Positions 12,151-59,970 of a stretch of 64,000 bases of DNA are shown in pieces (the stretch's first letter is position 1; each line of letters opens with the position of its first letter). The notes under the pieces are model-generated. The model did not search any database, was not told where the DNA came from, and saw only the letters and a program-made list of their open reading frames with translations. Made by a program: the position numbers and the translations under genes. The stretch is taken from NCBI GenBank assembly GCA_965243135.1, contig OZ251539.1, positions 4,630,236 to 4,694,235 of the forward strand, read 5' to 3'. Source of the DNA: Alphaproteobacteria bacterium. GTDB lineage: Bacteria > Pseudomonadota > Alphaproteobacteria > MPNO01 > UBA830.

Positions 12151-12151
12151 G

Positions 12152-31439: not shown

Positions 31440-31541
31440 GCCGCATTGTAATGCGCCGCCGGTTCGGCCGCACGATCCTGCGGCGACCGTTGCGCCGTTG
31501 GTTCCGATGGTGCAGGATCGCCGGGCTCGGGGGAGGCGCCG

Positions 31542-32360: not shown

Positions 32361-32572
32361 AACGCCCGCTGCGCGAAATCCGCGGAGAAACGCCCGCGAA
32401 TCCCCGTCCCGGGAAATTCGAGCTGCCGTCGGAAGGAGAGGCGAAGACGGCTCGGAATTTCGCCGATTTCCGTCGGGAGCGAGACGAGGTCCTGCGGCGA
32501 CGTTGCGATAAAAGCGTGCGGCCTGGAACCTCCCGAACCCCCGGACGGGCGTCGATTCTCGCTCGCCGGGCG

Positions 32573-34191: not shown

Positions 34192-34267
34192 GTCCCCTTC
34201 GTCTAGCGGCCTAGGACATCGGCCTCTCACGCCGAAAACAGGGGTTCGAGTCCCCTAGGGGACGCCA
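34192..34267 (+). tRNA. tRNA-Glu (anticodon CUC)
   Basis: Clean cloverleaf: acceptor GTCCCCT/AGGGGAC, D arm GTCT/GGAC, anticodon stem TCGGC/GCCGA with loop CTCTCAC, T arm AGGGG-TTCGAGT-CCCCT, discriminator G and an encoded CCA. The 5' half is nearly identical to E. coli tRNA-Glu. Confidence 0.85.
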
Positions 34268-43854: not shown

Positions 43855-44305
43855 CGGGTACGCCCACGTCTGCTCGATACGGATCGCCCGTCCCGCGGAG
43901 ACCGTTCTGGCGTTTCTGAGCGCGCCCGAGCTGTTGTCGAGCTGGGCGGCGGGCATGGGGCGCGCAAAGATCCACGACGATGGGCTTGTCGAGGGCGCGT
44001 TTCCGGATACGGGCGAACCGATCTGGGCGCGGATCGACGCGGATCCGAAGCGCAATGCGATTCATTACCATCTCGGCCCGGAACCCTCGTCTCTGGCGCC
44101 GCGAATCGAGATACGAATCGTTCCCGGACCGGTCCTGGAGTCCGATGCCGACTCCTGCGTCGTCTCGATGATCGCGTGGCGGCAGAACGGCATGGACGAC
44201 GTTCGTTGGCGAAGCCTCAAATCCGGCCACGAAGCCGAAATCCTCGAAATCAAGAGGCTGATCGAAAGCCAAAAATACCGGGTACAAAAAGGGTGCTTCT
44301 GCTAG
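43847..44305 (+). CDS. hypothetical protein
   Basis: 152-aa ORF with backbone-like GC content and no recognisable motif. It is the last native gene before island 1. Confidence 0.45.
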   Translation: MDDGYAHVCSIRIARPAETVLAFLSAPELLSSWAAGMGRAKIHDDGLVEGAFPDTGEPIWARIDADPKRNAIHYHLGPEPSSLAPRIEIRIVPGPVLESDADSCVVSMIAWRQNGMDDVRWRSLKSGHEAEILEIKRLIESQKYRVQKGCFC

Positions 44306-44507
44306 TGGAGCTGCTAGAAATAAAAGTACCCCATCCATGGGAACAAACGATCTATTGCTCACCTGACCATGCTTCTTGACAGTACCATCGAGACCGTGCT
44401 ATGAACATTCAAGTAATCCATTTTGAGGAAATTCTGACTGAATTTTCGCACGACAAATTTGGATGTTATGGTATCCTGAATGGATTAGGGATGAGGATCA
44501 AGAAATC

Positions 44508-45953
44508 ATGAAGGATCAAACATATCAATTGTTGCATAATTTTTCCAACTTTGTCGCAGTTGGCGATTGTTGGGATGCTGCGCGAGAATTAATGGCTACG
44601 CATCAGATAATTGAGGTTTCTGAGACCGAAGAATTTATTTTAGGAATCAAGAAATTATCAGAAATTGCGAGAAAAGGTGATGACATTGATCGTCTCATTG
44701 CAATCGATCTAATCGTTCGCATTTCTAAATTTGTAAAAAAATTGCGCCCGAAATCGGAGGAAGCGCTTCGTCAAATTCTAACGGATAATATACCGCCTTC
44801 TTCATTGTTATCAAACACAAAAAAAATCCCAGAGGGAGCGAAGCCAGCAGAACTACGCGAGAATTTGGCAATAGCGCTGAGCTATGCATCAGGAAATTGG
44901 GTCGTTCCATATGTTGTGCGTTCCTTGTTGGAGGAAGATCGTTCACAAAGATGTCGTATGGAATTAGCTCGCCAACTAGCCACACGAGAAAAATCTATTG
45001 ACAAATGGTTGCTTTCAGTAATTAATTTTCTTATGAAAGGCGTAAACGAAAAGGAAAGAAATGTCGAAATCGCCGTGACAAGACTGCGCGATACTACAAC
45101 AGCGCTTCTTGGTGCCGCGAGAGAAAACCGGAATAATCTCGGGATATCGGGAAACTCCGGCGTTAATTTTTCTAAGATGTGTTCCCTTTTCACGCCAAAT
45201 TCGTCGTTTGCTAAACGCCCAAAATCTCTAGAGTCTTGTTCAATTGAAGTAGCGCGCTTTCTGGATGAAATATTTGCTAATAAACTCATGCTTATCGTGG
45301 AACCAGAAGCGTACTCTGTGTTGGATATAATTCAAAAATGGTGGCAACCACTTTCTTATCCACAACGATTGCGAAATGCATTAGATCCAATAAAGGATAA
45401 AATACTTACTGGTATCACATTAAGAGCCCGCTGGGGGCAGAAATCTGATAAGCTTCGATCTCGTCTCGGACAGGCATATGGCGATCAACGGTTAGCATTT
45501 AATCGTCTTGAACAAATTGCAACGGAGGAAACAGGTCTTCCTTCAGATATTGATGATTGGTTGAGGGGGCGTCGTCGAAAGACGAGCGGCGTAGAAAATG
45601 CGACTCTCGCTCTTCAATCAGTGGAAGAAGATAGTTTAATTGATGCTTTTGCACCGCTGCTTCTTGAAGCGGAAGTCGTACTGAAATCTAGACTCGATCC
45701 TTCGTTGTCTAATGAAAATCGAACCAGTCTTCGACTCGCAGAAAATGTAAGATCTTTGGCGATAAGACATGGATTAGAAGTTGTTGGAGAACGAGATGAA
45801 ATAGTGGAATATCTGCCAGTATGTCATCAGACTTCTTCGGGTGAAATACCACCGGATCCGTCTGTTAAAATCGTTCGTCCCATGGTGGTGCGCAAGCGAT
45901 ACGATGGAAGTGAAGACGTTGTTGTTAAGGCAATTGTAACCGCGGTATCATGA
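44508..45953 (+). CDS. hypothetical all-helical protein (about 481 aa), island 1 gene A
   Basis: AT-rich ORF with a GAGGA RBS before the ATG at 44508 (an alternative ATG is at 44463). It has HEAT/ARM-like helical repeats and no catalytic motif I can recognise. Confidence 0.55.
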   Translation: MKDQTYQLLHNFSNFVAVGDCWDAARELMATHQIIEVSETEEFILGIKKLSEIARKGDDIDRLIAIDLIVRISKFVKKLRPKSEEALRQILTDNIPPSSLLSNTKKIPEGAKPAELRENLAIALSYASGNWVVPYVVRSLLEEDRSQRCRMELARQLATREKSIDKWLLSVINFLMKGVNEKERNVEIAVTRLRDTTTALLGAARENRNNLGISGNSGVNFSKMCSLFTPNSSFAKRPKSLESCSIEVARFLDEIFANKLMLIVEPEAYSVLDIIQKWWQPLSYPQRLRNALDPIKDKILTGITLRARWGQKSDKLRSRLGQAYGDQRLAFNRLEQIATEETGLPSDIDDWLRGRRRKTSGVENATLALQSVEEDSLIDAFAPLLLEAEVVLKSRLDPSLSNENRTSLRLAENVRSLAIRHGLEVVGERDEIVEYLPVCHQTSSGEIPPDPSVKIVRPMVVRKRYDGSEDVVVKAIVTAVS

Positions 45954-45984
45954 TGCCAACGCGCTAACCGAAAAAGGGGGTGTC

Positions 45985-46773
45985 CATGGAAAATATGATC
46001 GGGTTGGATAGGCCAGCGCTTCTTTCAAGTGTACTAGATGAACGGTCAAGAAACCCCTTAGGTTGCGGCGTGATCAGGTAGTGTCTTTTTTCGAGTCGTT
46101 GCCGTATGTGGCGATGGAGACCTGCGTCAGCGCTCATCACTGGGGTCGGCGTCTGAGAGATACGAGGTAGAACTTTTCCGGCCCAGATCCTTACCTCAAA
46201 TAGAACAAGAACGACGCACTGACAGCGAGGCGGTACAACGCCCGCAATTGCCGTCCCGAGGAGCAAGGACGTACACGGCGTGCTGTCGTTTCACAGGACG
46301 CCGAAAATGTTGGCTAAGTAGGGTGCCTAGAACTCCGACGAGTGCGCGGAGTTCGGCGTGGTCGCATTCCAGAACTGTGCCGATGTGAACCAGCCGGTTC
46401 ATCCGGGACGACAGCCTGCTGCCTGAAGAAGCTCGCTTGGCGACGTCGGTCAACCTTTTCGATCAGATCTGGAAGACCGCCGAGATGCAGGAGGCTCCGC
46501 GGAGTTGCACAGCGAGTTAGGCGACAATTCGAAAAAACTCCAGACGTCAGCGTGGCCACCGCGCTGACGGCATCGCTCGGGCTAGTGCCGCGGCAGAACG
46601 GTCCCGGTTCACCGTATCTGAAGGTGCTCATGGAAACAGTGAACTAGGTCGCCGTGGCGATTGCCAACCGAAACGTACGAATCGCTCGGGTGATGGTCCA
46701 CAGCGTCCAATCTTATAGACCAAGGATTGCCGAGTCTCCAACCATACAGGCGCAGGCCGAAGTTCACCCGTAA
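45985..46773 (+). pseudogene. degraded IS110-family transposase remnant
   Basis: IS110 N-terminal and C-terminal signatures are scattered over three frames with multiple stops (MENMIGLD, FFESLPYVAMETCVSAHHWGRRL, TASLGLVPRQNGPG, VAIANRNVRIARVM). It is too short for an intact element. Confidence 0.6.
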
Positions 46774-46855
46774 GTTGCATCCGAAAAATGCTTGCAACCC
46801 GTGGACGTCCATGCAAGTATGTGATGCATCCATTGAATCAGCAGAGGCGATAACC

Positions 46856-48436
46856 ATGCCGGATATTAATCGCGCGGCTTTTGATATTCTGGGACCAAAC
46901 GAGGACGAATTAAGAATTTGTTTGGATTTTGGTACTGCCATGTCGAAAGCATGGGCATCAAGATATTCTGATGACAGTACCATACCCCTTGTATTGGGAA
47001 GGGCGGCCGGCGAGGGTAATGAGTTGGCGGTCCCTTCGTCTATATTTATTTCTCAATCTGGAAAGATTTTCTTTGGAAGGCAAGCGGAAATTCAACATAG
47101 AAAGGAAATAGGAAATCGGCGCCGAAGATTTGATAACTTGAAATCAGTTCTTTGCGAATCAAAAGTTGATCGAGAACTTGACGAGATAGGAGTATCGCGA
47201 GAAATTGATCCAACGGGTTCTCTTACAATAGGTGGTTTGTTAACTCTATATATTGCTTGGTTAACTGATCTTTCTCTTGTAGAATTGGAACGGCAGATAC
47301 ATGCAGCAAATGAACCCAACTCTAGCGGACAAAATCCGAACAATCTTCGCTATGTTCGTAGGAGATTTGCTATCCCATGCTTTGAAAATTCTTATGACGA
47401 ATCTGTTGGTGGGGATCGACGGGCTCGATGGGCAAGAAAAATAATGAGGAAAGCATTGCTTCGGGCTCAAATTATCGCCGATACATTGAATGGGCATTGG
47501 GACGATCTAACAGTATACGATGCTTTGAGATTATTTGAAACCGTCCGGGGCATGGAAATTTCTAGGTGTGATCGATTGCTAGCAAGGGACGCCTCAGTTC
47601 GGGAGCCAGTTGCTGCAGGAGCATCGCGATTTGAAGAAATGATTACCGAAGGTAAGGCTAGGAGGATGCTGCTAGTAATCGATGCGGGCGCAGGGACCAC
47701 GGATTTTGCTATTTTTCAGGTTTTTTCTGATCAAGAAACGCGGTACGCATTAATTTCATCCGGGGTTTCTATGTGTCTAATTGCAGGAAATAGAGTCGAT
47801 CAGGTTTTAATGGAAGTCATTCTTGATGAATGTGGCGTTGATTTAGCTCAAAATAACAAGGAGGATAGAGAATCTTTCAAATGGGAACTGGAATCAAATC
47901 TCCGAAACATAAAGCAAATCCTGTTTCAGGAAAAGCGAGCAAGAATAGATTTTTTGTCAGATGTCACGGGGGAATTGCATATTGACACTCTTCTCGAAGA
48001 TCATAGATATATGAAATTAGGAGAGGAATTGTGCACAATCCGCGATAGGCTAATTGATGACCTTTTTCGAAAAAATCCTAAAGAATTGGATGATCTAAAA
48101 AAGCATATGCAAATGCTAAGTAAACCGTTTCCTATACATGTATTGCTGACGGGAGGTAGTGGTGAGCAGCCAATAATAAAAGATTTAGCCAAAGGTCATA
48201 TTGTAGTTGACGGATTAAATATTGAATTTAAGGAGGTTCGGGCTCTGCCAAATTGGATCAATGATCTACAGCGTGATCAGGCGGAATTAGTTGCTAGGGC
48301 ATATCCGCAATGTGCGGTCTCTATAGGTGGTTCGGCTCGCGAAGTTCCCCAAGAACGAAACGATTTAGTTTCCATGGTGAATCCCGCAGCGCCAGGAGAG
48401 AGACGACTTGAAGGCAATTACATGAAGGGCGTATAA
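46856..48436 (+). CDS. Hsp70-like (ASKHA superfamily) ATPase, island 1 gene B
   Basis: Phosphate-1 (ICLDFGTAMSKAW), phosphate-2 (LLVIDAGAGTTDFAIF) and adenosine (VLLTGGSGEQPIIKDL) motifs arranged as in the Hsp70 nucleotide-binding domain. It has no peptide-binding-domain-like C-terminus. Confidence 0.65.
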   Translation: MPDINRAAFDILGPNEDELRICLDFGTAMSKAWASRYSDDSTIPLVLGRAAGEGNELAVPSSIFISQSGKIFFGRQAEIQHRKEIGNRRRRFDNLKSVLCESKVDRELDEIGVSREIDPTGSLTIGGLLTLYIAWLTDLSLVELERQIHAANEPNSSGQNPNNLRYVRRRFAIPCFENSYDESVGGDRRARWARKIMRKALLRAQIIADTLNGHWDDLTVYDALRLFETVRGMEISRCDRLLARDASVREPVAAGASRFEEMITEGKARRMLLVIDAGAGTTDFAIFQVFSDQETRYALISSGVSMCLIAGNRVDQVLMEVILDECGVDLAQNNKEDRESFKWELESNLRNIKQILFQEKRARIDFLSDVTGELHIDTLLEDHRYMKLGEELCTIRDRLIDDLFRKNPKELDDLKKHMQMLSKPFPIHVLLTGGSGEQPIIKDLAKGHIVVDGLNIEFKEVRALPNWINDLQRDQAELVARAYPQCAVSIGGSAREVPQERNDLVSMVNPAAPGERRLEGNYMKGV

Positions 48437-48540
48437 AGTATTAGTCAGGGAACAAGGCTGTTGGCCGGACTGCTTCACTCGGGATGGGCGGGAGAGCTTG
48501 TTGTTGCAATGACTTCCAATCGCGAGACCTTGGAACAAAG

Positions 48541-49797
48541 TCAGTCCGCAGCGTCGGCGAGACCGACGAGCGTTTCAGCGAGTACCCGTGCCCCGTCCGC
48601 GAGATCTTCCGGCGCGGCATTTTCCGCTTCGTTGTGACTGATGCCTTTCTCGCAGGGGACGAATATCATCCCGGTCGGGCACACGAAATGCAGTTGGCGC
48701 GCATCGTGCCCCGCTCCGGAGAACATTCGCATGGCCGGGAGGCCGAGACGGTCGGCGGCGGCCTCGACGGCGTCCACCACCAGCGGTTCGAACTCGATGG
48801 AATCCGCCTCGGCGATGCGCCATGCCTCGACGTCGCACGCAACCGACCGGTCGCGGCAGATCCCGTCGACTTCCGAGGCGAGCCGTTCGAGCAGCGCCGA
48901 ATCGGGGTGGCGAATGTCGATCGAAAACACGGCGCCGCTCGCCACCACGGAGGGCACGTTGGGCTCGGGCAGCATCATGCCTACGGTGAACCGCACGTCT
49001 TCGTCGGCATGAAGCTGGTCGTGCAGGGCGGACACCATGCGGGCGGCCTCCCAGAGAGCGTCCTTGCGCGCCGCGCGCGGGGTCGTTCCTGCGTGCGCTT
49101 CCTCTCCCGTCACCCTGACGCGCATTCGCCTTACGCCTTGAATGCCGGTCACGATGCCGATGGTCTTTCCCAGCCTTTCGAGTTCCGGCCCCTGCTCGAT
49201 ATGGGCTTCGACGAACGCGGCGACAGGGCGGCCGAGCGGAAGTTCCCCGGCATCCGGCGTTGCGGCTAGCGCCGCCGGCAGCGCGTCGCGGACGGGCGTG
49301 CCGTCCCGATCCCTTACCGTGAGGATCTCCTCCATGCCGCGCAACCCGGCGAAGGCTTCGGAGCCCATCATGCCCGGCGCGAAACGCGACCCTTCCTCGT
49401 TCATCCAGGCGGCGACCTCGATGGACCGCCGGGTCGCGACGCCCGCGTCGTTCAGGGCTTCGACCGCTTCGATCCCGGCGAGCACGCCGTATGCGCCGTC
49501 GAACTTGCCGCCGGTCGGCTGGCTGTCGATATGCGACCCGGTCATGACGGGCGGCAAGCCGGGGTCGCTGCCGTCCCGCCGCAGGAACAGGTTGCCTGCC
49601 GCGTCGACGAAAACGCCGAGGCCGAGTTCCGCGGCCCAGGAGGCCAGTCGGCCTCGCGCCTCGATTTCTTCCGTGGAAAGCGCCTGCCGGTTGACGCCGC
49701 CCTTTCCGGTCGCGCCGAACTGCGCGAGCTCCATATGACGCCGCCACAGACGGGCCTCGTCGACGAAGCCGGAGACGATGCGCGGGCTTTCCGGCAC
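48541..49797 (-). CDS. hyuC: N-carbamoyl-L-amino acid amidohydrolase / allantoate amidohydrolase (peptidase M20 family)
   Basis: 418-aa M20/AmaB-like protein. Functionally it matches the hyuAB genes upstream of the island. Confidence 0.85.
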   Translation of the reverse strand: MPESPRIVSGFVDEARLWRRHMELAQFGATGKGGVNRQALSTEEIEARGRLASWAAELGLGVFVDAAGNLFLRRDGSDPGLPPVMTGSHIDSQPTGGKFDGAYGVLAGIEAVEALNDAGVATRRSIEVAAWMNEEGSRFAPGMMGSEAFAGLRGMEEILTVRDRDGTPVRDALPAALAATPDAGELPLGRPVAAFVEAHIEQGPELERLGKTIGIVTGIQGVRRMRVRVTGEEAHAGTTPRAARKDALWEAARMVSALHDQLHADEDVRFTVGMMLPEPNVPSVVASGAVFSIDIRHPDSALLERLASEVDGICRDRSVACDVEAWRIAEADSIEFEPLVVDAVEAAADRLGLPAMRMFSGAGHDARQLHFVCPTGMIFVPCEKGISHNEAENAAPEDLADGARVLAETLVGLADAAD

Positions 49798-49798
49798 G

Positions 49799-50683
49799 TC
49801 AGTCTTTCAAGCCGGACAACAGAGCGGACGCGCCCGCGTAAGGTTTCTTTTCGGTCCAGCGGCCCGCTTCGACCGTCGCGAAGAACTCGGAGAGAACGGC
49901 GTTGAACATGCCGGGTTCTTCGAGATTGATCGTATGGCCGGTCCTGGGAACGACCCAAAGCCCGGCCGCCGGAATGGTCCGCTTCAGAAAGAGGCCAGGT
50001 TCGAGGCACCAGTCGTCTTCGTCGCCGTTCACGATCAGCGTCGGGACCTTCATTTCCCTGAGCCGGTCTTCGAGGTCGTAAAGCGAAGGACGCAGTTTCT
50101 GCACGCCCCGCATGGTGAGCGCCGCGCCTCTGGCGGAATGCTTCGCGAGCGTGTCGCGGAATTCCGCCCATCCCCGGGGATCCTTCTCCCTGAACTGCAG
50201 GCGATACGCGCCGCCTGCGTACATCTGCGCCATGGCTTCCGCGCCCGCCTTGTCGTATTCCGCCGCCAGCGTCTCCGAATCCGCCGCGTATCGTTCGCGC
50301 TGGTCGCGGGCGGCGCCGTAACCGCAGGCGGCGACCGTCAGCGACCGCGCCATCGCGGCGTATCGAAGCCCGAAATGAAGCGCGGCGAAGCCGCCCATGG
50401 ACATACCCACGACATGGGCGCGGTCGACATCCGCCGCCCGAAGCACGGCCGCGATGTCGTCGGTCGCGTGATCCTGGGAATAGAGAGCCTGATCTTCAGG
50501 CACGTCCGACGGCGGATAGCCGCGCGCATTGAAGGCGATGCAACGGTAGCGGCGCGAGAAATACCGGATCTGGGGTTCCCAGCTCAGAAGATCGTCGGCG
50601 AATTCGTGGACGAAGATAATCGGAATCCCGGCGCCGGCGTCTTCGTAATACAGGCGGACGCCGCCGCTGTCGGCGTACGGCAT
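49799..50683 (-). CDS. alpha/beta hydrolase fold protein
   Basis: GMSMGG nucleophile elbow. 294 aa. Confidence 0.8.
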   Translation of the reverse strand: MPYADSGGVRLYYEDAGAGIPIIFVHEFADDLLSWEPQIRYFSRRYRCIAFNARGYPPSDVPEDQALYSQDHATDDIAAVLRAADVDRAHVVGMSMGGFAALHFGLRYAAMARSLTVAACGYGAARDQRERYAADSETLAAEYDKAGAEAMAQMYAGGAYRLQFREKDPRGWAEFRDTLAKHSARGAALTMRGVQKLRPSLYDLEDRLREMKVPTLIVNGDEDDWCLEPGLFLKRTIPAAGLWVVPRTGHTINLEEPGMFNAVLSEFFATVEAGRWTEKKPYAGASALLSGLKD

Positions 50684-50684
50684 C

Positions 50685-51476
50685 CTAAAGCGCCTTTACC
50701 TGTCCGCCGTCGATATCGAACATCGCGCCGGTCGCGTAGCTTGCCCGCGCAGAAGCCAGAAAGACTACGAAAGAAGCCAGCTCCCGGGGCTGGCCGTAGC
50801 GCTTCAGAACCGTTTCGCCGGCAAGAACGGCCGTTGCTTCCTCCACCGATACGCCGTCTTCCTTCGCTTTCTCCTCCGCGAGATAGACCATTCGTTGCGT
50901 CGCGAAAGGGCCGGGATTGACGACGTTGGACAGAATTCCGTGCGGCCCGCCCTCTTCCGCGAGCGCCTTGCTGACGTTCTGGAGCGCCGCGTTGCAGAAG
51001 CCGGCCGTGATCGCGTGCGCATGCGGCTGCCGGCCGTGGGTGCCCGCGATGAACAGGATTCGTCCGCCGTTCCCGCGCTTCGCCATTCCCAAGAAGACCT
51101 CACGGGCGAGGCGGATCTGGGCGAGAATCTTCACTTCGACCGCGTCCCGCCACTGCCGGTCCGTCATTTCCGCGAAGGGAGCCGTCGCCGCGCCGCCCGA
51201 ATTGGCCACCACGATGTCGATGCCGCCGAACCGAGTTTCCGCTTCGCGGACCATTCGAACGACAGCGTCGGCGTCGGTCATGTCGGCGACGATGCCGTGG
51301 ACCTCGCCGCCGGTCGCCGACCTCAAGCGCTCGACGGCGCCGGCTAGACGGTCGGCGTTTCGGGCGGAGACGACAACCCGCGCGCCCTCGGCCGCGAATT
51401 CCTCGGCGACGAAGACGCCGAGGCCGCCGCTGGCCGCCGATACCAAGGCCGTCTTGCCCTTCAGTTCCAAGTCCAT
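50685..51476 (-). CDS. SDR-family oxidoreductase
   Basis: TALVSAASGGLG Rossmann motif. The start is the internal Met MDLELKGK. Confidence 0.85.
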   Translation of the reverse strand: MDLELKGKTALVSAASGGLGVFVAEEFAAEGARVVVSARNADRLAGAVERLRSATGGEVHGIVADMTDADAVVRMVREAETRFGGIDIVVANSGGAATAPFAEMTDRQWRDAVEVKILAQIRLAREVFLGMAKRGNGGRILFIAGTHGRQPHAHAITAGFCNAALQNVSKALAEEGGPHGILSNVVNPGPFATQRMVYLAEEKAKEDGVSVEEATAVLAGETVLKRYGQPRELASFVVFLASARASYATGAMFDIDGGQVKAL

Positions 51477-51814
51477 GGCCTTCCGCTCCGCATCTTCGAT
51501 ACAGGCATTTTTCACTTTCCCCCGGAAGCCGTCCGAAAGCAACAGCGGGAAGAGGGAACCTTGCAGGGCCGCCCGGGCCGGCTTTCCGTCCCGCGCGACG
51601 TTCGGGCGCGGTTGGAACGGCCGGTAGTATTTTGCGACGATGGTGGCGGCCGAGCGGGAAAAAGCCGTATTGTGAACAAGGCCGTAACACTCGGAACCGT
51701 GAGGGATCGAACCGCAGTTTGGCGGTTATCTGCGGGCGATAGGGCAGTATTGTTGCCGTGCGGGTCGTCGGCACCGTCCTGCCGGGACCGAATGAGCACG
51801 CGGAGGAGAAACGG

Positions 51815-53053
51815 ATGATCGAACTGGCTCGTCGCATTCGACTGGGCGAGGATTCGATGCTCAAGTTGAAGAGCGTTCGCTCGATGGCGGGCCGCGATAC
51901 CGGTCCGCAACGTAGTGAATTCGCGGACGAGCTGGCCGCCATGGCCAACGGCCGGGGCGGCACTCTGGTCCTCGGCGTGGACGACGACACTCGTCGGATC
52001 GAAGGCATTCCGCTTGCCGAGCTTGACGCGGTCGAAGGCTGGGTCCGCGAAATTTGCGACGACTTCGTGAAACCCGCGCTCGATGTCGACATTTTGAAAC
52101 AGGAACTGAAAGACGGCAGCGGAGAACTCGTCCCGATTATTGTCGTGGAGACCCCTCGGAGCCTGTTCGTGCACGAGAGTCCCGGCGGATACTTCCGCAG
52201 GATCGGCGGCTCGAAGCGCAAGATGGAGCCGGAGGCTCTCGCCCGTCTGTTTCAGGAGCGGAGCCAGACCCGGCAGATCCGCTTCGACGAATTGATCGTG
52301 CCCGGCACCGGTCCGTCCGACTTGCAGTATTCGCTGACGCACCGGTTCATGCGATCAAACGAAGGACTTCCCGCCAATTCCCGCTTCTCCGGCGAAGTTC
52401 TCGATACATTGCGGAAGCTTTGCATCGTGGCCGACGAGGATGGACAAGCGCGGCTTACGCTCTCGGGCGCGCTTCTTTGCACAGCGGAACCGCAGCGGTG
52501 GCTGCGCCACGCGTACATTCAGGCCGTCAACTACGCAGGCGACCGGATCGACACCAAGTACCAAACCGACGCAAGGGATATCGGCGGACCTCTGGACGAG
52601 CAGGTGGCCGGAACACTGGACTTCGTGCGGCGCAACATGCTGGTGCGCGCCGCCAAGACAAACGCGCGGATGGACCGCCCGCAGTTCAGCGAGCGCGCCG
52701 TGTTCGAGGCGCTTGTGAACGCGGTCGCGCATCGCGACTACTCGCTGGCGGGCGCTCGGATTCGCCTCCACATGTTCGGCGACCGGCTTGAGCTCTACGT
52801 TCCCGGCGGGTTGGCCAGCACGCTTGCCCCGGACAGCCTCCATCTGCGGCAGTCGAACCGGAACAACGTTATCGTGTCCCTGCTTGCCCGATGCGCCGCG
52901 CCATCCGGGATCGGGCGCATGCGTCTGATGGACGTACGCGGCGACGGAGTGCCGATCATTCGCGCAGAGTGCGAAAAATTGTCGGGGAGATTGCCGGAGT
53001 ACAGACTGATCGACGAAAACGAGCTGCGACTCGTAATTCCGGCCGCTGGATAG
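51815..53053 (+). CDS. Schlafen-like AlbA_2 plus HATPase_c_4 domain protein (putative ATP-binding transcriptional regulator)
   Basis: N-terminal AlbA_2 pattern (ELAAMANGRGGTLVLGVDDDTRRIEG) and C-terminal HATPase_c_4 pattern (EALVNAVAHRDYSLAGARIRLHMFGDRLELYVPGGL). It is the first gene of island 2. Confidence 0.7.
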   Translation: MIELARRIRLGEDSMLKLKSVRSMAGRDTGPQRSEFADELAAMANGRGGTLVLGVDDDTRRIEGIPLAELDAVEGWVREICDDFVKPALDVDILKQELKDGSGELVPIIVVETPRSLFVHESPGGYFRRIGGSKRKMEPEALARLFQERSQTRQIRFDELIVPGTGPSDLQYSLTHRFMRSNEGLPANSRFSGEVLDTLRKLCIVADEDGQARLTLSGALLCTAEPQRWLRHAYIQAVNYAGDRIDTKYQTDARDIGGPLDEQVAGTLDFVRRNMLVRAAKTNARMDRPQFSERAVFEALVNAVAHRDYSLAGARIRLHMFGDRLELYVPGGLASTLAPDSLHLRQSNRNNVIVSLLARCAAPSGIGRMRLMDVRGDGVPIIRAECEKLSGRLPEYRLIDENELRLVIPAAG

Positions 53054-53070
53054 TCCGTTCACCGGCGGCC

Positions 53071-53424
53071 GTCTGGAAGCAAATCGTCTGCCTCGCGAAC
53101 TCCCGAAAGCGGTCGGGTCGTTACGTTGCGGGCCGCGAATGGTCGGAGACGGACGGCGCGGGGGCATGGGTCCGACCCGTCAGCAAGCGGGACGGCCAGG
53201 AAGTATCGGAACACGAGCAGCGGTACGAGGACGGTGCCGACCCGCGGTTGCTCGACATTATCGGCTTGCCTCTTCTGAAAGCCTGCCCTGAAGATTGGCA
53301 GACCGAAAACTGGTTGCTCGATCCGGAACGGTACTGGCAGAAGAACGGAAAATACTCGCGCTTCGATCTGGCGAAGCTCGCCGACGCGCTTGAACCGCTC
53401 TGGATCGACGGGTACGGCACCTAA
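53071..53424 (+). CDS. small hypothetical protein with no canonical start codon (possible N-terminal half of a frameshifted gene)
   Basis: Conserved-looking N-terminus (KQIVCLANSRKRSGRYVAGREWS...GAWVRPVS) begins right after the upstream stop. There is no ATG, GTG or TTG before the conserved segment. Confidence 0.3.
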   Translation, partial: VWKQIVCLANSRKRSGRYVAGREWSETDGAGAWVRPVSKRDGQEVSEHEQRYEDGADPRLLDIIGLPLLKACPEDWQTENWLLDPERYWQKNGKYSRFDLAKLADALEPLWIDGYGT

Positions 53425-53752
53425 TAACGGCCAAAACGACAAGGTTCCGCTCGGGCTGATCTCGTCGATTTCCGATTCGCTGCGGCTGATCAGGGTCGAG
53501 CGGCTTGAACTGGCCGTGTTCAGCTCGGGCGAGGCGTTCGGCAACGCCAAGCGGCGCGTGCAGGGGCGCTTCGAATTTTCGGGCCAGGAGTACGCGTTAT
53601 GGGTGACGGATCCTGCCTGCGAAAAGAAGTACTTTGCTAAGCTGGACGGCACCTATGCGACAGGCGGGAGCTATCTGACGATCAGCCTTGGAGAGGGGTA
53701 TAAGGGCGCTTGCTACAAGCTCGTTGCCGCCGTCATCGGGGTGGATGAATAA
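53390..53752 (+). CDS. small hypothetical protein overlapping the previous ORF in another frame (possible C-terminal half of the same gene)
   Basis: It overlaps the previous ORF by 35 nt in a different frame (a one-nucleotide shift). The ...YALWVTDPACEKKYFAKLDG...GACYKLVAAVIGVDE segment has no internal start codon near its beginning. Confidence 0.3.
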   Translation: MNRSGSTGTAPNNGQNDKVPLGLISSISDSLRLIRVERLELAVFSSGEAFGNAKRRVQGRFEFSGQEYALWVTDPACEKKYFAKLDGTYATGGSYLTISLGEGYKGACYKLVAAVIGVDE

Positions 53753-53756
53753 AGAT

Positions 53757-54374
53757 ATGGAAAACAGCGTTCTTACTATCGGCCACTCCAATCATTCTTG
53801 GGAAGCCTTCGCGGCTCTCCTCGAACTGCACGGCATCGGGGCCGTGGCGGATGTGCGCTCGGCACCGTACAGCCGCTTCAACCCGCAGTTTGATCGCGAA
53901 ACCTTCGCGGCCGCTCTCAAGGGGCGAGGCATAGCTTACGTCTATCTCGGGAGCGAACTCGGCGGCCGCTCCGAAGATCCTGGATGTTACGAGGGCGGCC
54001 GCATCCGTTATGACCGCATCGCGCTGACGGATCGTTTCCGGGACGGTATCGAACGCGTGGTTCGAGGGGCCGGAAAACACCGCATCGCTCTCATGTGCGC
54101 AGAGAAAGAGCCTCTCGATTGCCACCGAACCCTTCTCGTCGCGCCCGCTCTTGAACGGGAGGGTATAGACGTCATGCATGTTCACGCGGACGGCGTTCTT
54201 GAACCGAATGCCGAAGCGATGGACGGGTTGCTGGATAAATTCGACCTCCGCCCGGACGGCGATCTGTTCCAGCGGTCCCGCGAGGAGTTGGTCGCGGAAG
54301 CGATAGCGCTGCAAGCCAGGCGCGTCGCCCATGCTGACGACAGACCTGCGGGAGGGCGGGAGCGAAGCCGATGA
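53757..54374 (+). CDS. DUF488 family protein (paralog 1)
   Basis: LTIGHSNHS...AVADVRSAPYSRFNPQF...GIAYVYLGSELGG matches the DUF488 signature. Confidence 0.75.
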   Translation: MENSVLTIGHSNHSWEAFAALLELHGIGAVADVRSAPYSRFNPQFDRETFAAALKGRGIAYVYLGSELGGRSEDPGCYEGGRIRYDRIALTDRFRDGIERVVRGAGKHRIALMCAEKEPLDCHRTLLVAPALEREGIDVMHVHADGVLEPNAEAMDGLLDKFDLRPDGDLFQRSREELVAEAIALQARRVAHADDRPAGGRERSR

Positions 54375-54859
54375 GAGTGCTGACCATAGGATTCACGAAG
54401 AAGCCGGCGCAGCGGTTTTTCGGGCTGCTGCGCGAGTCCGGCGCCAGAAGAGTTGTCGACGTGAGGCTCAACACCGGATCGCAACTCGCCGGGTTCGCGA
54501 AAAAGCGGGATCTCGCGTGGTTCCTCGAAGAAATTTGCGGGATCGAATACGTCCATGCGCCGGATCTGGCGCCTTCGAAGGAACTGCAGGACGACTACCG
54601 GAAGAAGAGGATCGACTGGAGCGCTTACGAAGACCGGTTTGTGGATCTGATGCGCGAACGGCGGATCGAGGATACGGTTTCGAAGGAGATGGTGGACAGC
54701 GGCTGCCTGCTGTGCAGCGAGGATCAGCCCCATCATTGTCACCGGCGGCTGGTTGCCGAATATCTGACGACTTGTTGGGGCAATATCGAGGTCGAGCATT
54801 TGGGAATGTCGGGACCCGACGCGCGGTGGCCGCAGCCCGGGAAACCTCTTTCGGAGTAG
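54371..54859 (+). CDS. DUF488 family protein (paralog 2, divergent)
   Basis: LTIGFTKKPAQRFFGLLRESGARRVVDVRLNTGSQLAGF...GIEYVHAPDLAPS shows the same architecture. It has an ATGA overlap with paralog 1. Confidence 0.7.
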   Translation: MRVLTIGFTKKPAQRFFGLLRESGARRVVDVRLNTGSQLAGFAKKRDLAWFLEEICGIEYVHAPDLAPSKELQDDYRKKRIDWSAYEDRFVDLMRERRIEDTVSKEMVDSGCLLCSEDQPHHCHRRLVAEYLTTCWGNIEVEHLGMSGPDARWPQPGKPLSE

Positions 54860-55043
54860 CGGGTCGTCCGGAAAGGAAGCGTTTCCTGCCGAGCTTCTCC
54901 GCAAATTATCTGTGTCGGCCTCAAATCGCGTGTGGTTTCTTCGTGACCGGGCGGGCTGGTTGAGCGGTATTTCGGCTGAAGCTTGCCGGATGCGGGGCGG
55001 AGACGCGGTTGCCGCATTCCGCCGAGATCTGCGGCAAGCTGTT

Positions 55044-55069
55044 TGCTCCTGCGAAACGCGACTATAATG
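55044..55069 (+). promoter_or_regulatory. candidate sigma70-type promoter for the TIR-SLOG-TIR genes
   Basis: TTGCTC-N14-TATAAT sits about 83 nt upstream of the TIR gene start, in the only sizeable gap of the island (54860-55151). Confidence 0.3.
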
Positions 55070-55151
55070 CAGGCGTGCGGAAAGGCGCGGCGGCGGACCT
55101 CGCGCCTCGGCATGATCAAGCACTGCTAAGGGTGCCAAACGGGTATCTGAC

Positions 55152-56318
55152 ATGGATTCGTCCACTCGTCCGCTTTTTGCACTGTATGTGATTTGGCACC
55201 CTACATTTGCGTTTGGTCGAGAGATCGCGGATCGGCTCCGGTCGCATTTTGTCCGCAATCTCTACAAGACCGTTGGCGGAGATAATGGGGTGAGCGTTCT
55301 TGAGCGCAGCGAACCTTTGCCGGGTAAGCGCACGCCTTTGCCGATCGACTGGGACGAAGCGGAGATGACGGCAGCCGTTGTGATCGCGGAGTCCGGGCTC
55401 GTCGATGATCGCGATTGGACCGACTACATCCGCAGCGTCTCCCGAAGCGCGAGGACGAGAGGGGATTCCGCCGGTTTCTTTCCCGTCACGGTGGATTCCC
55501 GCGGAACCGAGTTCGGGTTCGAGGAACAGGCGCTGCGCTGGGACCGCTGGGGCGAACCCGACGCTGAGCGATGTCGACGCATGACCATCGACCTGACCCA
55601 CGAGTTTTGCCGTATGCTGCGACACCAGCTCGGGCGACCAGACAGCGGGCAGATGCCGCTCGAACAGCGTCTGGAGAAGATCCAGATTTTCATCAGCCAC
55701 ACCAAGCATGACGACGATGGCGAAATCGTGGCTCGCGGCATCCGCGACTGGATCCATGAACGCAGTCCGCTTTCGAGCTTCTTTGATGTCCACGATATTC
55801 CGCCTGGGCAGTCGGTCGAGGAGGTCTTGCTGCATCAGCTTGGCAAAGGAGCGGTCATGGTGGTGCACTCCGATTCCTATTCGTCGCGCGAATGGTGTCG
55901 TCGCGAGGTAATTGAGGCAAAGCGTCGCTTGGTGCCGATGGTCGTTGTCGATTGCGTGCGCGATATCGATTTCCGCGGAATGCCGTATCTCGGCAACGTA
56001 CCGATCATCCGCATGGATCCGGACCGGAGAGATCGGATAGAGACCGTTGCAGGTTGCCTCCTCGACGAAGTCTTCCGCACTTGGTTGTGGCTTTATCGCA
56101 TTGAGCGTTATCGGGCAGAGGCTTCCGGCGTATTGTTTACGGCTCGACCGCCCGAATTGATTGTCTTGGCGGCGATGTCTTTTCGTCGCGGAGAAGTCGA
56201 CCCAGTGATCGTCTATCCTGATCCCCTGTTGAGCGCCGAGGAAGGACATTTGTTCTCGAAGGTTGCTCCAAACGTGCGCGTTCAAACTTTGACGGAATGG
56301 CTGGAGGAACGACAATGA
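55152..56318 (+). CDS. TIR-domain protein (388 aa) with an additional N-terminal domain
   Basis: Central TIR signature IFISHTKHDDDGEIVARGIRDWIHE...VMVVHSDSYSSREWCRREVIEA. The N-terminal 170 aa (LFALYVIWHP...) may be a second degenerate TIR-like domain. About 90 aa extend C-terminally. Confidence 0.7.
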   Translation: MDSSTRPLFALYVIWHPTFAFGREIADRLRSHFVRNLYKTVGGDNGVSVLERSEPLPGKRTPLPIDWDEAEMTAAVVIAESGLVDDRDWTDYIRSVSRSARTRGDSAGFFPVTVDSRGTEFGFEEQALRWDRWGEPDAERCRRMTIDLTHEFCRMLRHQLGRPDSGQMPLEQRLEKIQIFISHTKHDDDGEIVARGIRDWIHERSPLSSFFDVHDIPPGQSVEEVLLHQLGKGAVMVVHSDSYSSREWCRREVIEAKRRLVPMVVVDCVRDIDFRGMPYLGNVPIIRMDPDRRDRIETVAGCLLDEVFRTWLWLYRIERYRAEASGVLFTARPPELIVLAAMSFRRGEVDPVIVYPDPLLSAEEGHLFSKVAPNVRVQTLTEWLEERQ

Positions 56319-57148
56319 CTCCAAGCAATGCACCATCCGCCATCGGAATTTCGATTTCAGAGAGTCCCGACATGCAGGCGCTCGGGTTAAGCGATGGCCA
56401 CTTGCGCGACGCCATGGCCGAGGTCGCGCTGCACTTGCTTGCCTCGGGAAGGAGCCTAGCCTATGGCGGAGATTTACGGCGCCATGGATTCACCGAGCTT
56501 TTGTTCGAGCTGGTCGGACGCTATCGAAACCATCCGCGACATCGCGGCACGATATCCGTAACCGATTATCTGGCTTGGCCCGTTCATATTAAAATGACCT
56601 CGAACGAGCTCGCTGCGTTCGCCGCCGAACACGATGCGGCTGTTTCTCTCGTTTTCCTTGCGCGAGACGGCGTGCGCCTCGAACGGGAACAGCGAATGAG
56701 GCTTTCTGAACGCGAACCGGATGACGACGAGTGGACGGAAGGACTAACGTCCATGCGGACCGCCATGCGCCGAGAAATTCAGGCTCGAGTAGTGTTGGGC
56801 GGCAGGGTCGAGGGCTACAAGGGAACCATGCCGGGGATCGCCGAAGAGGCCTATCTTTCTCTCGAAGCCAGTCAGCCGATCTTCCTGCTTGGCGGTTTCG
56901 GCGGGTGCGCCCGCGACATTGCCGAGACAATCGGGCTTGTCGACCGTTGGGCCGGCTCTAGGGGCGATTGGGACGGTCGCGGTCGCTTTCGTTCGTATTC
57001 CCCGAACGAACTCCGCAACGGCTTGTCCCGGGAGGAGAACGTCGTTCTCGCACGGACGCCGCACATCCAGGAGGCGGTCGCCTTGGTATTGCGAGGCCTC
57101 CGCCGGATCCTCAGCTGGAGAGATAGCGATGCACAAGGTATTCATTAG
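56315..57148 (+). CDS. standalone SLOG (LOG/ThsA-STALD-like Rossmann) domain protein
   Basis: LAYGGDLRRHGFTELL and PIFLLGGFGGCARDIAE match the SLOG/LOG GGxG...PGGxGTxxE pattern. It has ATGA coupling to the TIR gene and no SIR2, Macro or TM module. Confidence 0.6.
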   Translation: MTPSNAPSAIGISISESPDMQALGLSDGHLRDAMAEVALHLLASGRSLAYGGDLRRHGFTELLFELVGRYRNHPRHRGTISVTDYLAWPVHIKMTSNELAAFAAEHDAAVSLVFLARDGVRLEREQRMRLSEREPDDDEWTEGLTSMRTAMRREIQARVVLGGRVEGYKGTMPGIAEEAYLSLEASQPIFLLGGFGGCARDIAETIGLVDRWAGSRGDWDGRGRFRSYSPNELRNGLSREENVVLARTPHIQEAVALVLRGLRRILSWRDSDAQGIH

Positions 57149-57728
57149 TTATCACCATGAGAGGGATCAGGGGTACAAGGATTCCTTGATCGAGTTTGGC
57201 GTGAAGAATTCCGTATTCGTGGACAGGTCTGTCGATCCTGGCGACATTTCGGAGGAATTGAGCGACGAGCGGATCCGTCACATAATCAGAGACAAGTATC
57301 TTAGGGATTCCACGGTTACCATTGTGTTGGTTGGAAAAGAGACGAAACACCGGAAACACGTCGACTGGGAGATTCACACCAGCATGTACGACGGGACCGC
57401 GAGCAGAAGATCGGGAATAGTGGTCATCAACCTGCCGGGAACCTCCGATTACTTTGGCGCTCCTTATGGAGAGGCCGAGAAAAAACTCTTGTATCCAGAC
57501 GTTACGAACTGGATGAGTATAGATTCACGAGCGGAGTACGAACGCAGATATCCCTACATGCCTGATCGCATCGTGGACAATCTCGTGAAATCCGACGTAA
57601 AAATTTCGGTCGTTCCTTGGGGCAGGCTAAATGCGGAAAGACTCGAATTTCTGATAGAAGCGGCCTTTAGCAATCGTTTTGAGTGCGGATACGATCTGAG
57701 CAGACGAATGAGGCGGGCAAACTCGTAA
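57129..57728 (+). CDS. ThsB-like TIR protein (DUF1863-type)
   Basis: MHKVFISYHHERD...VTIVLVGKETKHRKHVDWEI closely parallels the Thoeris ThsB/DUF1863 TIR layout. Its GC content is markedly lower than the backbone. Confidence 0.75.
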   Translation: MHKVFISYHHERDQGYKDSLIEFGVKNSVFVDRSVDPGDISEELSDERIRHIIRDKYLRDSTVTIVLVGKETKHRKHVDWEIHTSMYDGTASRRSGIVVINLPGTSDYFGAPYGEAEKKLLYPDVTNWMSIDSRAEYERRYPYMPDRIVDNLVKSDVKISVVPWGRLNAERLEFLIEAAFSNRFECGYDLSRRMRRANS

Positions 57729-57897
57729 TACAGGGTTGCGTCGAAGCCGGAGGCCTGCGCCGACGCTCATCAATGGGGCGGGCCTTGCACGGCCGCAAAG
57801 CGAAGCTCGCGGACGAAACCGTTCGTCGACAAGAACGACCTTGCCGGTGCCGGTGCGATCTGCGAGGCGGCGGCCGTCGCGAGGCCGGTCGAAGAGG

Positions 57898-58371
57898 CTA
57901 CTCCGCGTCCGTGAACGACTGCAGGAAATTCTGCATCCCGACCTGATCGATCAGCGCGATCTGCGTTTCGAGCCAGTCGATGTGCTCCTCTTCGCTTTCC
58001 ATGATTTCGACGAACAGCTCGCGAGATACGTAATCGTTGACGCGCTCGCAATCGGCGACCGCGGCGATCAGATCCTTGCGCGACTCCATTTCGAGCAGCA
58101 GGTCGCATTCCAGCGCTTCCTTGACGTTCTCGCCGATCCTTAGACGGCCCAGATCCTGAAGGTTGGGAAGGCCCTCCAGATAGAGGATCCGGTTTATCAG
58201 CCGGTCCGCATGCTTCATCTCGTCGACCGATTCCCGGTATTCCATCTCGTCGAGCTTCCCGAAGCCCCAGTTCTTGAACATCCGGGCATGCAGGAAATAC
58301 TGGTTGATCGCCGTCAGCTCGTTCTTGAGCACCAGGTTCAGGTGCCGGATGACGTCCTTGTCGCCTTTCAT
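57898..58371 (-). CDS. bfr: bacterioferritin
   Basis: 157-aa Bfr with ferroxidase-centre residues ([23 protein letters not shown]). Confidence 0.9.
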
Positions 58372-58537
58372 GTCCTTATCTCCTTCGCCCGCGCAGGGCT
58401 TGCCTCGACCGAGGGTCCGATGTTACTCGAATTCGTCCGGCTTGTGGAGCGTTGCGGGCGGCGTCCGGGGAAGCGGCAAGTCCGGATCCGGGCGAGCCGC
58501 CGCAGCCTGCGCCGGTCTGCGCTTCGGAGAAACCGCC

Positions 58538-58918
58538 ATGTTTCCAATACAGCGCGTTCCCGGCAACGTGCCGACGAGAAGCTGGGGATCCGCCTATCGC
58601 GACTTGGTCTGGGCGCTCGGGATGTCCGACGATTTCACGCTCGATTTCGAAGGGCAGGCGGCCAGGGCGTTCGCCAATCTCGACGCGGTGCTCGACGCCG
58701 CGGGAGCCGACCGCACCTGCCTTCTGTCGGTGCAGGTCTATCTCCACGACGTGAACGCCTGCAAGCCGGCGTTCGACGAGATGTGGGCCGCGTGGATCGG
58801 CGGCGATCCGCAAAACTGGCCCATGCGCTCCTGCGTGCAAGTCGCGTTCGCCGGCGGAAACAAGATCGAACTCATCGTCGTCGCGGCGCGGCGGGAGGCG
58901 GCCGCTCCGACCGCCTGA
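58538..58918 (+). CDS. RidA/YjgF-family protein
   Basis: 126-aa Rid fold. The start is the internal ATG MFPIQR. Confidence 0.75.
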   Translation: MFPIQRVPGNVPTRSWGSAYRDLVWALGMSDDFTLDFEGQAARAFANLDAVLDAAGADRTCLLSVQVYLHDVNACKPAFDEMWAAWIGGDPQNWPMRSCVQVAFAGGNKIELIVVAARREAAAPTA

Positions 58919-58948
58919 TGCGCGTTTTTCCGGCTCCGAGCTCTGCGG

Positions 58949-59317
58949 TCAATCCCGTTTGCGGCGGATCATGGGGCCGAGCGGTTCGCCGGCGAGGATG
59001 TGGGTATGGAGATGGGGCACCTCCTGGTGGGCGTCGTTTCCGTGGTTGGCGATCAGGCGGTAGCCGGTTTCGTGGACTCCCAGAATGCGGGCGGTCTCGC
59101 CGATCGCCGCGGCGTAGCCGGCTTGCGCTTCGGGCGGCGCTCCGGCCGAAAAGTCGTCCCACGAAACGTAAGAACCTTTCGGAACGACGAGAACGTGCAC
59201 CGGCGCCTGCGGGTTGATGTCCCTGAAGGCGAGCGCGTGCTCGGTCTCGTGCACCTTGTCGCAAGGGATCTCGCCCCGCAGGATCTTCGCGAACAGGTTT
59301 CCGTCGTCGTAAGTCAT
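58949..59317 (-). CDS. HIT-family protein
   Basis: Histidine triad HLHTHIL. 122 aa. Confidence 0.85.
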   Translation of the reverse strand: MTYDDGNLFAKILRGEIPCDKVHETEHALAFRDINPQAPVHVLVVPKGSYVSWDDFSAGAPPEAQAGYAAAIGETARILGVHETGYRLIANHGNDAHQEVPHLHTHILAGEPLGPMIRRKRD

Positions 59318-59970
59318 CCGTCATCTCCCCGCGCCGCCTTTTCCTTGAGGCCGGAAACGCCGCTTCGGCGCGCCAGCTCGGCGGCGATCTCCCTCGGCGC
59401 GATCTCCGCGTCGACCCATGCCGCCAGCAGGTGGCAGAGGAGGCCGTCGCTTTCCGCGACCAGCGCTCCCCTGTTCCTGGCGGCTGCCGCGATAACGACC
59501 TCGAGCGCCTCTTCTCCCAGTTTCAGGGCAATCTTTTCGGTTCCGCGCTCGAACAGTTGCGCTATTTTTGGCGCGGCAGCCGCGTTTCCTCTGCCGGATT
59601 CGATCTCGGCATAAAGCCGTTCGACGACGTTTCCGAAGCCGTTCGTCGTGCCGGTTCGCCCGGAGGCCGTGTGGCGGCGGCGGCTCTGGCGCGCCAGCCC
59701 GGAGGAGACCTCCGCTAGAGCGATTTCCGCATCGGCCCACGCCACCAGCAGATGGTAGAGAAGGTCGGCGCTCTCCGCGACCAGCGCCTCCCTGTCTTTC
59801 ATGACCGCCGCGATCACGGCTTCCACTGCTTCTTCGCCGAGTTTCTGCGCAATCTTCGCGGTTCCGCGTTCGAACAACTGCGCTGTGTACGACGCCGCGG
59901 GATCGCCGCCCCTGCGGGATTCGATCACGGCGTGAAGCCGTTCGACGGCTTCTCCGAAGCCGTTCGTCAC
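59314..59970 (-). CDS. hisE: tandem fused phosphoribosyl-ATP pyrophosphatase (HisE-HisE)
   Basis: One 218-aa ORF contains two complete HisE-like domains ([15 protein letters not shown]...LLYHLLV and [15 protein letters not shown]...LLCHLLA). It has a GTGA overlap with the hisF stop and an ATGA overlap with the HIT gene. Confidence 0.75.

Follow-up and report, generated by a model that had tools for sequence, protein, structure and literature searches.

Two DUF488 paralogs beside TIR and SLOG genes belong to a decayed copy of the candidate defence cassette PDC-M45

Introduction

Embedding between restriction-modification (R-M)-type genes is the genomic logic of validated embedded defences, and PDC-M45 is among the 145 PADLOC candidates that Payne, Hughes, Fineran & Jackson (2024, bioRxiv 10.1101/2024.01.29.577857) predicted by 'guilt-by-embedding' from genes located inside BREX, DISARM, and type I R-M systems. 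It is catalogued there as CAS_00153, a three-family cassette with a listed count of 68. PDC-M45 is itself a prediction, not a validated system. Here we describe a pair of adjacent DUF488 genes, designated A and B, in a 64,000-nucleotide (nt) stretch of an alphaproteobacterial genome (assembly GCA_965243135.1, contig OZ251539.1, positions 4,630,236 to 4,694,235 of the forward strand); this whole stretch is called the window, and positions are window positions unless a locus is named. The pair belongs to a cassette that has the same three families in the same order as PDC-M45 (DuOB as M45A, DUF488 as M45B, and DUF488-N3a as M45C), and the cassettes of its relatives are likewise embedded in DNA-modification-type defence systems. 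The copy in the window differs from PDC-M45 in that M45A is a pseudogene and in that an extra gene, Slfn, lies upstream, as it does in a part of the related loci. The feature is a decayed member of this already catalogued candidate defence family.

As with other genes that lie within Hma and type I R-M systems, copies of the cassette can be located between the hmaB and hmaC genes or the hsdS and hsdR genes. Unlike the HEC/PDC inserts (BrxU/GmrSD-like, PrrC-like), the copy in the window is not embedded and stands between housekeeping genes and another cassette, and the components of validated HECs are unrelated to those of the DuOB-DUF488 cassette. Thoeris and TIR-SLOG systems resemble it only as neighbours in the same small island; they do not co-occur with DUF488 or DuOB in either direction, and the DUF488 cassette carries neither a ThsA-like effector nor a NAD-related domain. 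Our literature searches returned no paper with 'DuOB' together with 'OB-fold', or with 'PDC-M45', in its main text.

Results

Composition and gene order of the cassette

The identity of the genes around the DUF488 pair was established by comparison with PADLOC and Pfam models. In PADLOC, the products of A and B match PDC-M45B (1.5e-77) and PDC-M45C (1.5e-69), and two DuOB open reading frame (ORF) fragments match PDC-M45A (2.4e-41 and 1.8e-36). The three genes are adjacent on one strand in the A-B-C order of PDC-M45; they are not all intact in the window, DuOB being broken. When homologs of A were surveyed by scanning one genome per species, 80 loci were kept (L001-L080). B directly follows A in 59 of these loci, DuOB lies upstream of A in 53, and the complete order DuOB-A-B is the same as in the window in 45. 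These data establish the gene order of the cassette. Look-ups from B and DuOB homologs recovered the four-gene cassette again, once in the middle of an ABC-transporter operon, and DuOB itself is abundant, being found in ~3,700 non-redundant proteins.

The fourth gene, Slfn, lies upstream of DuOB in the window and in 31 of the 80 loci, and its product matches PF04326 (1.9e-13) and PF13749 (1.8e-14). We place its start at the ATG at 51815 (412 amino acids (aa)), ahead of which a GGAGGAG Shine-Dalgarno-like site is found in the 5' leader; the ORF list has an earlier start, GTG at 51758. The ratio of nonsynonymous to synonymous substitution rates (dN/dS) of Slfn is 0.16-0.25, and the gene looks constrained. 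Slfn is absent from the three-gene definition of PDC-M45, so a four-gene variant of the cassette, with Slfn as a facultative first gene, seems to exist. As side observations, the Slfn module matches the N-terminal part of the PADLOC pAgo model (2.8e-16), and PHROGs labels Slfn a 'DNA helicase'.

The unit that carries the DUF488 pair extends over ~51603-55042, conserved 5' and 3' flanks included (Table 1). The 3' flank has no significant RNA structure (fold z-score -0.29) and no terminator, and the promoter and terminator scan, Rfam, and RNA folding of this flank gave nothing above background. We propose that a self-contained mobile cassette, (Slfn)-DuOB-A-B, includes the two DUF488 genes as its B and C components, a reading to which we assign a probability of roughly 0.6; within it, membership of the pair in the cassette and its independence from the neighbouring TIR genes are very probable.

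Table 1. Features of the DUF488 cassette and of the adjoining TIR-SLOG-TIR genes (window positions).
Feature	Positions	Strand	Basis
Conserved cassette 5' leader	51603..51814	+	Alignment with L081/L082, homology with L081 beginning here; synteny block boundaries
Schlafen/AlbA_2 + HATPase_c_4 gene (Slfn), 412 aa	51815..53053	+	Pfam; 412-aa orthologs in L081/L082
DuOB (dual OB-fold; PDC-M45A), pseudogene	53065..53752	+	Pfam, PADLOC, DNA alignment, translations
DUF488 paralog A (PDC-M45B), 209 aa	53745..54374	+	Pfam, PADLOC, AF2 model, dN/dS
DUF488 paralog B (PDC-M45C; DUF488-N3a), 162 aa	54371..54859	+	Pfam, PADLOC, dN/dS
Conserved 3' flank, moves with cassette	54860..55042	+	Homology with L081/L082/L083 stops ~55036-55042
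TIR_2 protein	55152..56318	+	Pfam
SLOG cluster-2/LD_cluster2 protein	56297..57148		Pfam
ThsB-like TIR	57129..57728		Pfam

The DUF488 paralogs

Two same-strand DUF488 ORFs, as described in an earlier note on this DNA, were confirmed with PF04343 (A, 84.9 bits, 8.5e-24; B, 94.4 bits, 9.6e-27; cut-off 22.2 bits). Their paralogy also holds, the two proteins being 31% identical (BLASTP E 9e-9), as does the overlap of the B start (ATG, 54371-54373) with the A stop (TGA, 54372-54374) in an ATGA. The TIGHS signature that the note had ascribed to both copies is present in A; B reads TIGFT. Of the two, only B is a member of PF22751 (DUF488-N3a, the 'active DUF488-N3 subclade'; 46.7 bits, 4.7e-12; gathering threshold 27 bits), the Pfam scan giving no match for A, and this domain is carried by 120 of 120 B homologs among those listed. 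NCBIfam holds no model for Slfn, DuOB, A, or B, and PHROGs returned only unknown-function matches for B.

The ORF of A was listed as 53757..54374 (205 aa). Its start is more likely the ATG at 53745 (209 aa, MNKDMENS...), which matches the relatives P0001 and P0005 (93% and 82% identical, respectively) and overlaps the DuOB stop by 8 nt. The 4-nt overlap between A and B is kept in 44 of 54 intact A-B pairs, from lineages that include Gammaproteobacteria, Alphaproteobacteria, Latescibacterota, Acidobacteriota, and Spirochaetia, and is therefore a feature of the pair and not a product of chance; A and B are translationally coupled. A C-terminal helical extension is found in A and is absent from B. 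Residues T11, G13, D36, R38, S43, C118, E120, P123, C126, H127, R128, and H145 are invariant in A and B, and the core made up of T-x-G, D-x-R, and C-x-E-x-x-P-x-x-C-H-R is invariant in an alignment of 86 A- and B-type sequences. Both genes look constrained by purifying selection (dN/dS of 0.13-0.18 for A and 0.12-0.15 for B). A 308-aa relative, P0006, was considered as an A-B fusion and rejected; it is an internally duplicated A and probably an assembly artefact.

Fusions among A, B, DuOB, and HsdS

A profile search with DUF488 across 1.84 billion cluster representatives returned 16,139 relatives, the top matches being multi-domain proteins. Pfam scans and inspection of the sequences identified A::B single chains in P0361, P0362, P0363 (with a ~90-aa linker), P0365, and P0426; the first of these is present on at least 24 contigs, with DuOB after it and GmrSD-like genes before it. 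DuOB::A fusions are represented by P0374 and P0393, and about a dozen further representatives of 412-471 aa may be DuOB::A fusions as well. A third arrangement joins A to HsdS, the type I R-M specificity subunit (P0408, P0482, and P0501). P0482 is the hsdS::A gene of a type I R-M operon (L108, 1791..4906) with the order hsdM - hsdS::A - B(N3a) - DuOB - DUF3644 - hsdR, in which the A domain lies at the HsdS C-terminus and the cassette genes run A-B-DuOB, in contrast with DuOB-A-B elsewhere.

The A::B chains suggest that the two paralogs, each with the conserved core, assemble into a pseudo-dimeric heteromer, and the fusions to DuOB and HsdS indicate that this heteromer probably works in one complex with DuOB, with a DNA-recognition subunit attachable to A. 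In some fusions, HsdS takes the place of DuOB, and the HsdS::A fusions point to DNA as the target. The earlier note had proposed a heterodimeric accessory or sensor. Its heteromeric part is upheld by the frequent adjacency of A and B, the conserved ATGA, and the A::B fusions; the link to TIR/SLOG genes is not (see below).

Two small genes with a 4-nt overlap could also be a toxin-antitoxin or addiction pair that stabilises the island, and for some systems a pairing of an active with an inactive member is implied by the Pfam names DUF488-N3a and DUF488-N3i. Yet A and B are paralogs that both have the full conserved core, with B falling in the 'active' subclade and A outside N3i. The two are moreover found fused in one chain, or fused to DuOB or HsdS, and B is cleanly deleted with A kept in L042, the reverse being seen in L101, which is unexpected for a neutraliser pair. 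We consider an addiction pair very improbable.

Relation to the TIR and SLOG genes

According to the earlier note, DUF488 had been recruited to the TIR/SLOG genes that follow it. The TIR gene starts at 55152, only 292 nt past B and on the same strand, and one of the 80 A loci (L010) has a SLOG homolog, ~5.7 kb off and on the opposite strand; both observations would fit a DUF488 pair that serves the adjoining TIR-SLOG-TIR genes as accessory, sensor, or regulator. Against this, none of the 80 A loci has the 388-aa TIR protein (TIR388) or a ThsB-like TIR. In the reciprocal survey, for which the SLOG protein was the query and which yielded 14 metagenomic loci, neither DUF488 nor DuOB nor Slfn was found in any of the 14. 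TIR388-SLOG is itself a fixed pair, with TIR388 directly upstream of SLOG in 13 of 13 loci with sequence there, and a ThsB-like TIR lies nearby in 4 of the 14. A co-occurrence survey of the kind that the note had called for is in effect already available, the trio being PADLOC candidate PDC-M45; DuOB and Slfn, the upstream partners, had been missed in the note.

Comparison with related loci leads to the same result. L081, a relative with ~86% nucleotide identity to the window that was used for synteny and for the DuOB alignment, is syntenic with window 48540-55042 and 57749-59995. It keeps the four-gene cassette at the same chromosomal site and lacks TIR-SLOG-TIR (window 55042-57749), which between these blocks is replaced by an IS630-type transposase and small unknown ORFs. 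In L082, the cassette (window 51713-55036) is present in yet another arrangement. G+C content also differs, at ~66% for host genes, 61-63% for the cassette, and 55-60% for the TIR block. From these results, we regard a function of the DUF488 pair as a TIR/SLOG accessory as scarcely credible. Because the synteny with L081 and L082 and the G+C content differ among its parts, we conclude that the 'island' is three independently acquired cassettes: PDC-M61, DuOB/DUF488, and TIR-SLOG-TIR.

The first of these lies in a low-G+C (41-47%) insertion, window 44255..48540, that is absent from L081 and encodes PDC-M61A (44463..45953) and PDC-M61B (46727..48436, 5e-81); neither protein has a Pfam domain. 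The genes for the TIR_2, SLOG, and ThsB-like TIR proteins make up an operon in which successive genes overlap by 22 and 20 nt. No PADLOC v2 model covers the SLOG protein, and the TIR matches in PADLOC are only weak. As a self-contained cassette, TIR-SLOG-TIR may be a more promising lead than the two DUF488 genes. The sole Rfam match in the window is a tRNA gene (34192..34264, RF00005, 60.5 bits), which does not adjoin the cassettes.

Genomic contexts of the cassette

The cassette lies between HmaB, a DUF1156 methylase, and HmaC, a HEPN_Swt1-DUF499 ATPase, in seven loci (L002, L008, L019, L029, L040, L044, and L067), and a partial form of this embedding is seen in L056, L064, and L078. The Hma-embedded unit includes Slfn in L002, L008, and L019. 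On the Allochromatium tepidum plasmid pAt1, a more divergent DuOB-A-B trio is located between csx16/cas1 and csm6 of a type III CRISPR locus, and on the A. tumefaciens plasmid pAt1D1108a, the cassette is found beside a CBASS operon, behind an HTH/ImmA pair. Based on these contexts and on the hsdS::A operon, a role of the cassette in defence or conflict is, on balance, probable.

DUF488-like genes were also observed in phages. In temperate Gordonia phages, such a gene lies between the integrase/metalloprotease and immunity repressor genes; gp42 of Gordonia phage Nymphadora (L107, 2983..3435) is DUF488-like and annotated as 'HipA toxin'. In Microbacterium phage ValentiniPuff, the DUF488-like gp112 (L106, 2995..3423) is at the genome end, after SSB and RuvC-like genes. 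Many of the genomes with a cassette are uncultured marine metagenome-assembled genomes (MAGs), often from sponge-associated-looking bins that include Candidatus Poriferihabitaceae, SB0662/SB0665 bins, Latescibacterota, and Binatia.

Decay of DuOB and erosion of the cassette

Alignment of the window with L081 and L082, whose DuOB genes are intact (228 aa), identified two lesions. The codon at 53065-53067 is GCG where the intact genes have ATG, and one extra A in CCTAATAAC (53423/53424) creates TAA TAA (53422-53427) and shifts the frame (+1); matches to the DuOB model PF22557 lie on two frames. Two near-invariant residues are altered (C20Y and L16R), and dN/dS is somewhat raised on the window lineage (0.36 vs 0.21 for L081-L082). 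The DuOB gene has decayed in this genome. With both a missing start codon and a frameshift in this gene, the cassette here is probably inactive, or reduced to what A-B can do alone.

Erosion of the cassette is common in other loci. L042 shows a clean 420-bp deletion of B when compared with the 96%-identical L030 (10618..11038), leaving Slfn-DuOB-A; in L102 the Slfn gene is split, remnants of DuOB persist in several loci, and seven loci have intact A-B pairs and no DuOB. Loci with A only are scattered over the A tree and do not form one clade, which indicates repeated independent erosion; a solo subfamily of A was considered for these loci and rejected for the same scatter. In L032, L045, L052, L075, and L076 (~9186-9992), A adjoins a set of shared unknown ORFs, and a second A-only group (L037, L047, and L070, ~10589-12900) has shared unknown ORFs of its own. 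The shared ORFs of both groups are conserved, lie directly upstream or downstream of A, lack a Pfam or PADLOC match, and may be alternative partners of A.

Whether the whole cassette is a non-functional relic in this genome is orthogonal to the other readings, and we give it an even chance. Two independent inactivating lesions, the altered residues and raised dN/dS of DuOB, and the frequency of erosion elsewhere argue for a relic; the intact Slfn, A, and B genes with their low dN/dS, the seven loci that hold A-B pairs with no DuOB, and the fact that the single-base insertion in DuOB could be an assembly error argue against it.

Predicted folds

The literature searched reports no activity for any DUF488 protein, in agreement with the statement in the earlier note that this domain has no established biochemical function; mentions of DUF488 in an SGNH review were followed up and rejected, since they actually concern DUF4886. 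Neither A nor B nor an A+B profile matched any sequence in the PDB, even at E<=10. The AlphaFold2 (AF2) model of A (mean predicted local distance difference test (pLDDT) score of 84.8) has a Rossmannoid alpha/beta domain followed by the C-terminal helical extension. The top Foldseek probabilities for this model (0.97-0.99) are for phosphatases of the protein tyrosine phosphatase (PTP) fold, namely DUF442, SsoPTP, PRL-1, and Siw14, with E values of 0.01-0.06 for the first three; borosin/diphthine-synthase-like methylases were also returned, and BFVD gave a weak DSP match. In the model, the strand that ends in C118 is followed by a helix that starts with H127-R128, at the topological place of the PTP P-loop.

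Burroughs and Aravind (in 2023) reportedly grouped DUF488 with RapZ-C and DUF4326 in a rhodanese-phosphatase superfamily, for which they are said to have predicted roles in DNA-end processing. The placement of DUF4326 in this superfamily by the same authors, with a predicted role in processing ribose-linked phosphates, is published (PMC9503650). The A model resembles the superfamily in being Rossmannoid and in having a conserved Cys at a strand end, from which a loop leads to an Arg that starts a helix.

The intact DuOB ortholog matches the Pfam DuOB model at 7.9e-66, and the AF2 model of DuOB (pLDDT 87.1) is all-beta, with two predicted OB barrels. Its best Foldseek matches are tandem-OB proteins that sense or bind DNA, namely HIN-200 proteins (AIM2/IFI16/p202), CST, RPA, and POT1, all of them weak (E>=2.7e-3). 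DuOB is a predicted tandem OB fold that is like HIN-200 proteins (AIM2, IFI16, p202/p204) and RPA/CST/POT1 in fold only, with template modelling (TM) scores of 0.3-0.4 and identity <10%, and no homology is claimed.

Discussion

The data presented here assign the DUF488 pair to a self-contained mobile cassette with a probable part in defence or conflict. Several results weigh against this reading or against the chemistry that it suggests. Neither the preprint that predicted PDC-M45 nor the cold-seep validation set yielded an experimental test of it. Parts of the cassette can persist alone, as 17-18 of the 80 loci have A only and one locus with B only exists (L101). The genes that flank the cassette in the 80 loci are mostly housekeeping genes, and the cassette proteins are 60-75% identical across phyla, which is unusually high for defence genes; among the phyla of marine MAGs, this identity suggests recent horizontal spread. 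On the structural side, Foldseek returned no match at E<=1e-3 for A against PDB and BFVD or for DuOB against PDB, and the PTP-fold matches of A are weak (E>=6e-3, TM 0.37-0.53). The A loop, C118-AEKEPLD-C126-H127-R128, has the form C-x7-C-H-R (C-x9-R) and differs from the CX5R of the rhodanese-phosphatase superfamily and PTPs; C118, C126, H127, and H145 could instead be a metal site (Cys2His2-type). In an hhalign comparison with a single template, which is a weak test, the DUF488 profile gave no signal against E. coli RapZ (probability 0.2%).

The flanks, which are mainly metabolic or transport genes, and the very high conservation across phyla would also be expected of a mobile module for nucleic-acid repair, end processing, or RNA processing with a housekeeping or stress role, the presence of which in defence loci would reflect insertion hot spots. 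Proteins of repair and RNA metabolism often have OB, PTP-like, or RapZ-like folds, and one phage DUF488 gene lies beside SSB and RuvC genes. We nevertheless hold such a module to be unlikely. Copies of the cassette recur inside Hma and type I R-M operons, the HsdS::A fusion included, and others lie within a type III CRISPR locus or next to CBASS or GmrSD genes. Its patchy distribution and frequent erosion are typical of accessory genes, and a DUF488 gene is located in the immunity region of temperate Gordonia phages.

For the self-contained cassette, we can outline a mechanism in which DuOB, or HsdS in the fusions, would bind DNA and position the A/B pseudo-dimer. The pseudo-dimer might then carry out a Cys- or His-dependent transfer or hydrolysis of phosphate or sugar phosphate, the substrate being nucleic-acid termini or a nucleotide, with Slfn (Schlafen/AlbA_2-GHKL), where present, serving to sense or regulate. 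Such a cassette would act against phages or mobile genetic elements and would ride along with restriction-modification-like systems. As a tentative proposal, DuOB and DUF488A/B could be a DNA-directed enzyme of a new kind that acts as an immune effector or modifier. A tandem-OB protein (or, in the fusions, HsdS) would bring a Cys-dependent, PTP-like, non-CX5R pseudo-dimeric enzyme to DNA, where it would catalyse an end-processing or backbone/sugar-phosphate reaction that is so far undescribed and is tied into Hma and type I R-M complexes, Slfn being optional. Any specific chemistry of the DUF488 pair, which is read from fold and motif, is equally doubtful.

For this window, the analysis removes a false lead, as DUF488 is not a newly recruited TIR/SLOG accessory. 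The copy of the cassette in this genome is a poor choice for cloning because its DuOB gene is broken; intact representatives are present elsewhere, among them the L081/L103 type, A. tumefaciens 1D1108 pAt1D1108a (31284-33128), and Allochromatium tepidum pAt1 (64480-66204). DuOB-DUF488-DUF488 cassettes are numerous and highly conserved and lie repeatedly within R-M-like systems, and the fusions, together with the hsdM-hsdS::A-B-DuOB-hsdR operon, lead to testable hypotheses of a single DNA-targeted complex with named catalytic residues. The cassette family as a whole is a reasonable target for biochemical work.

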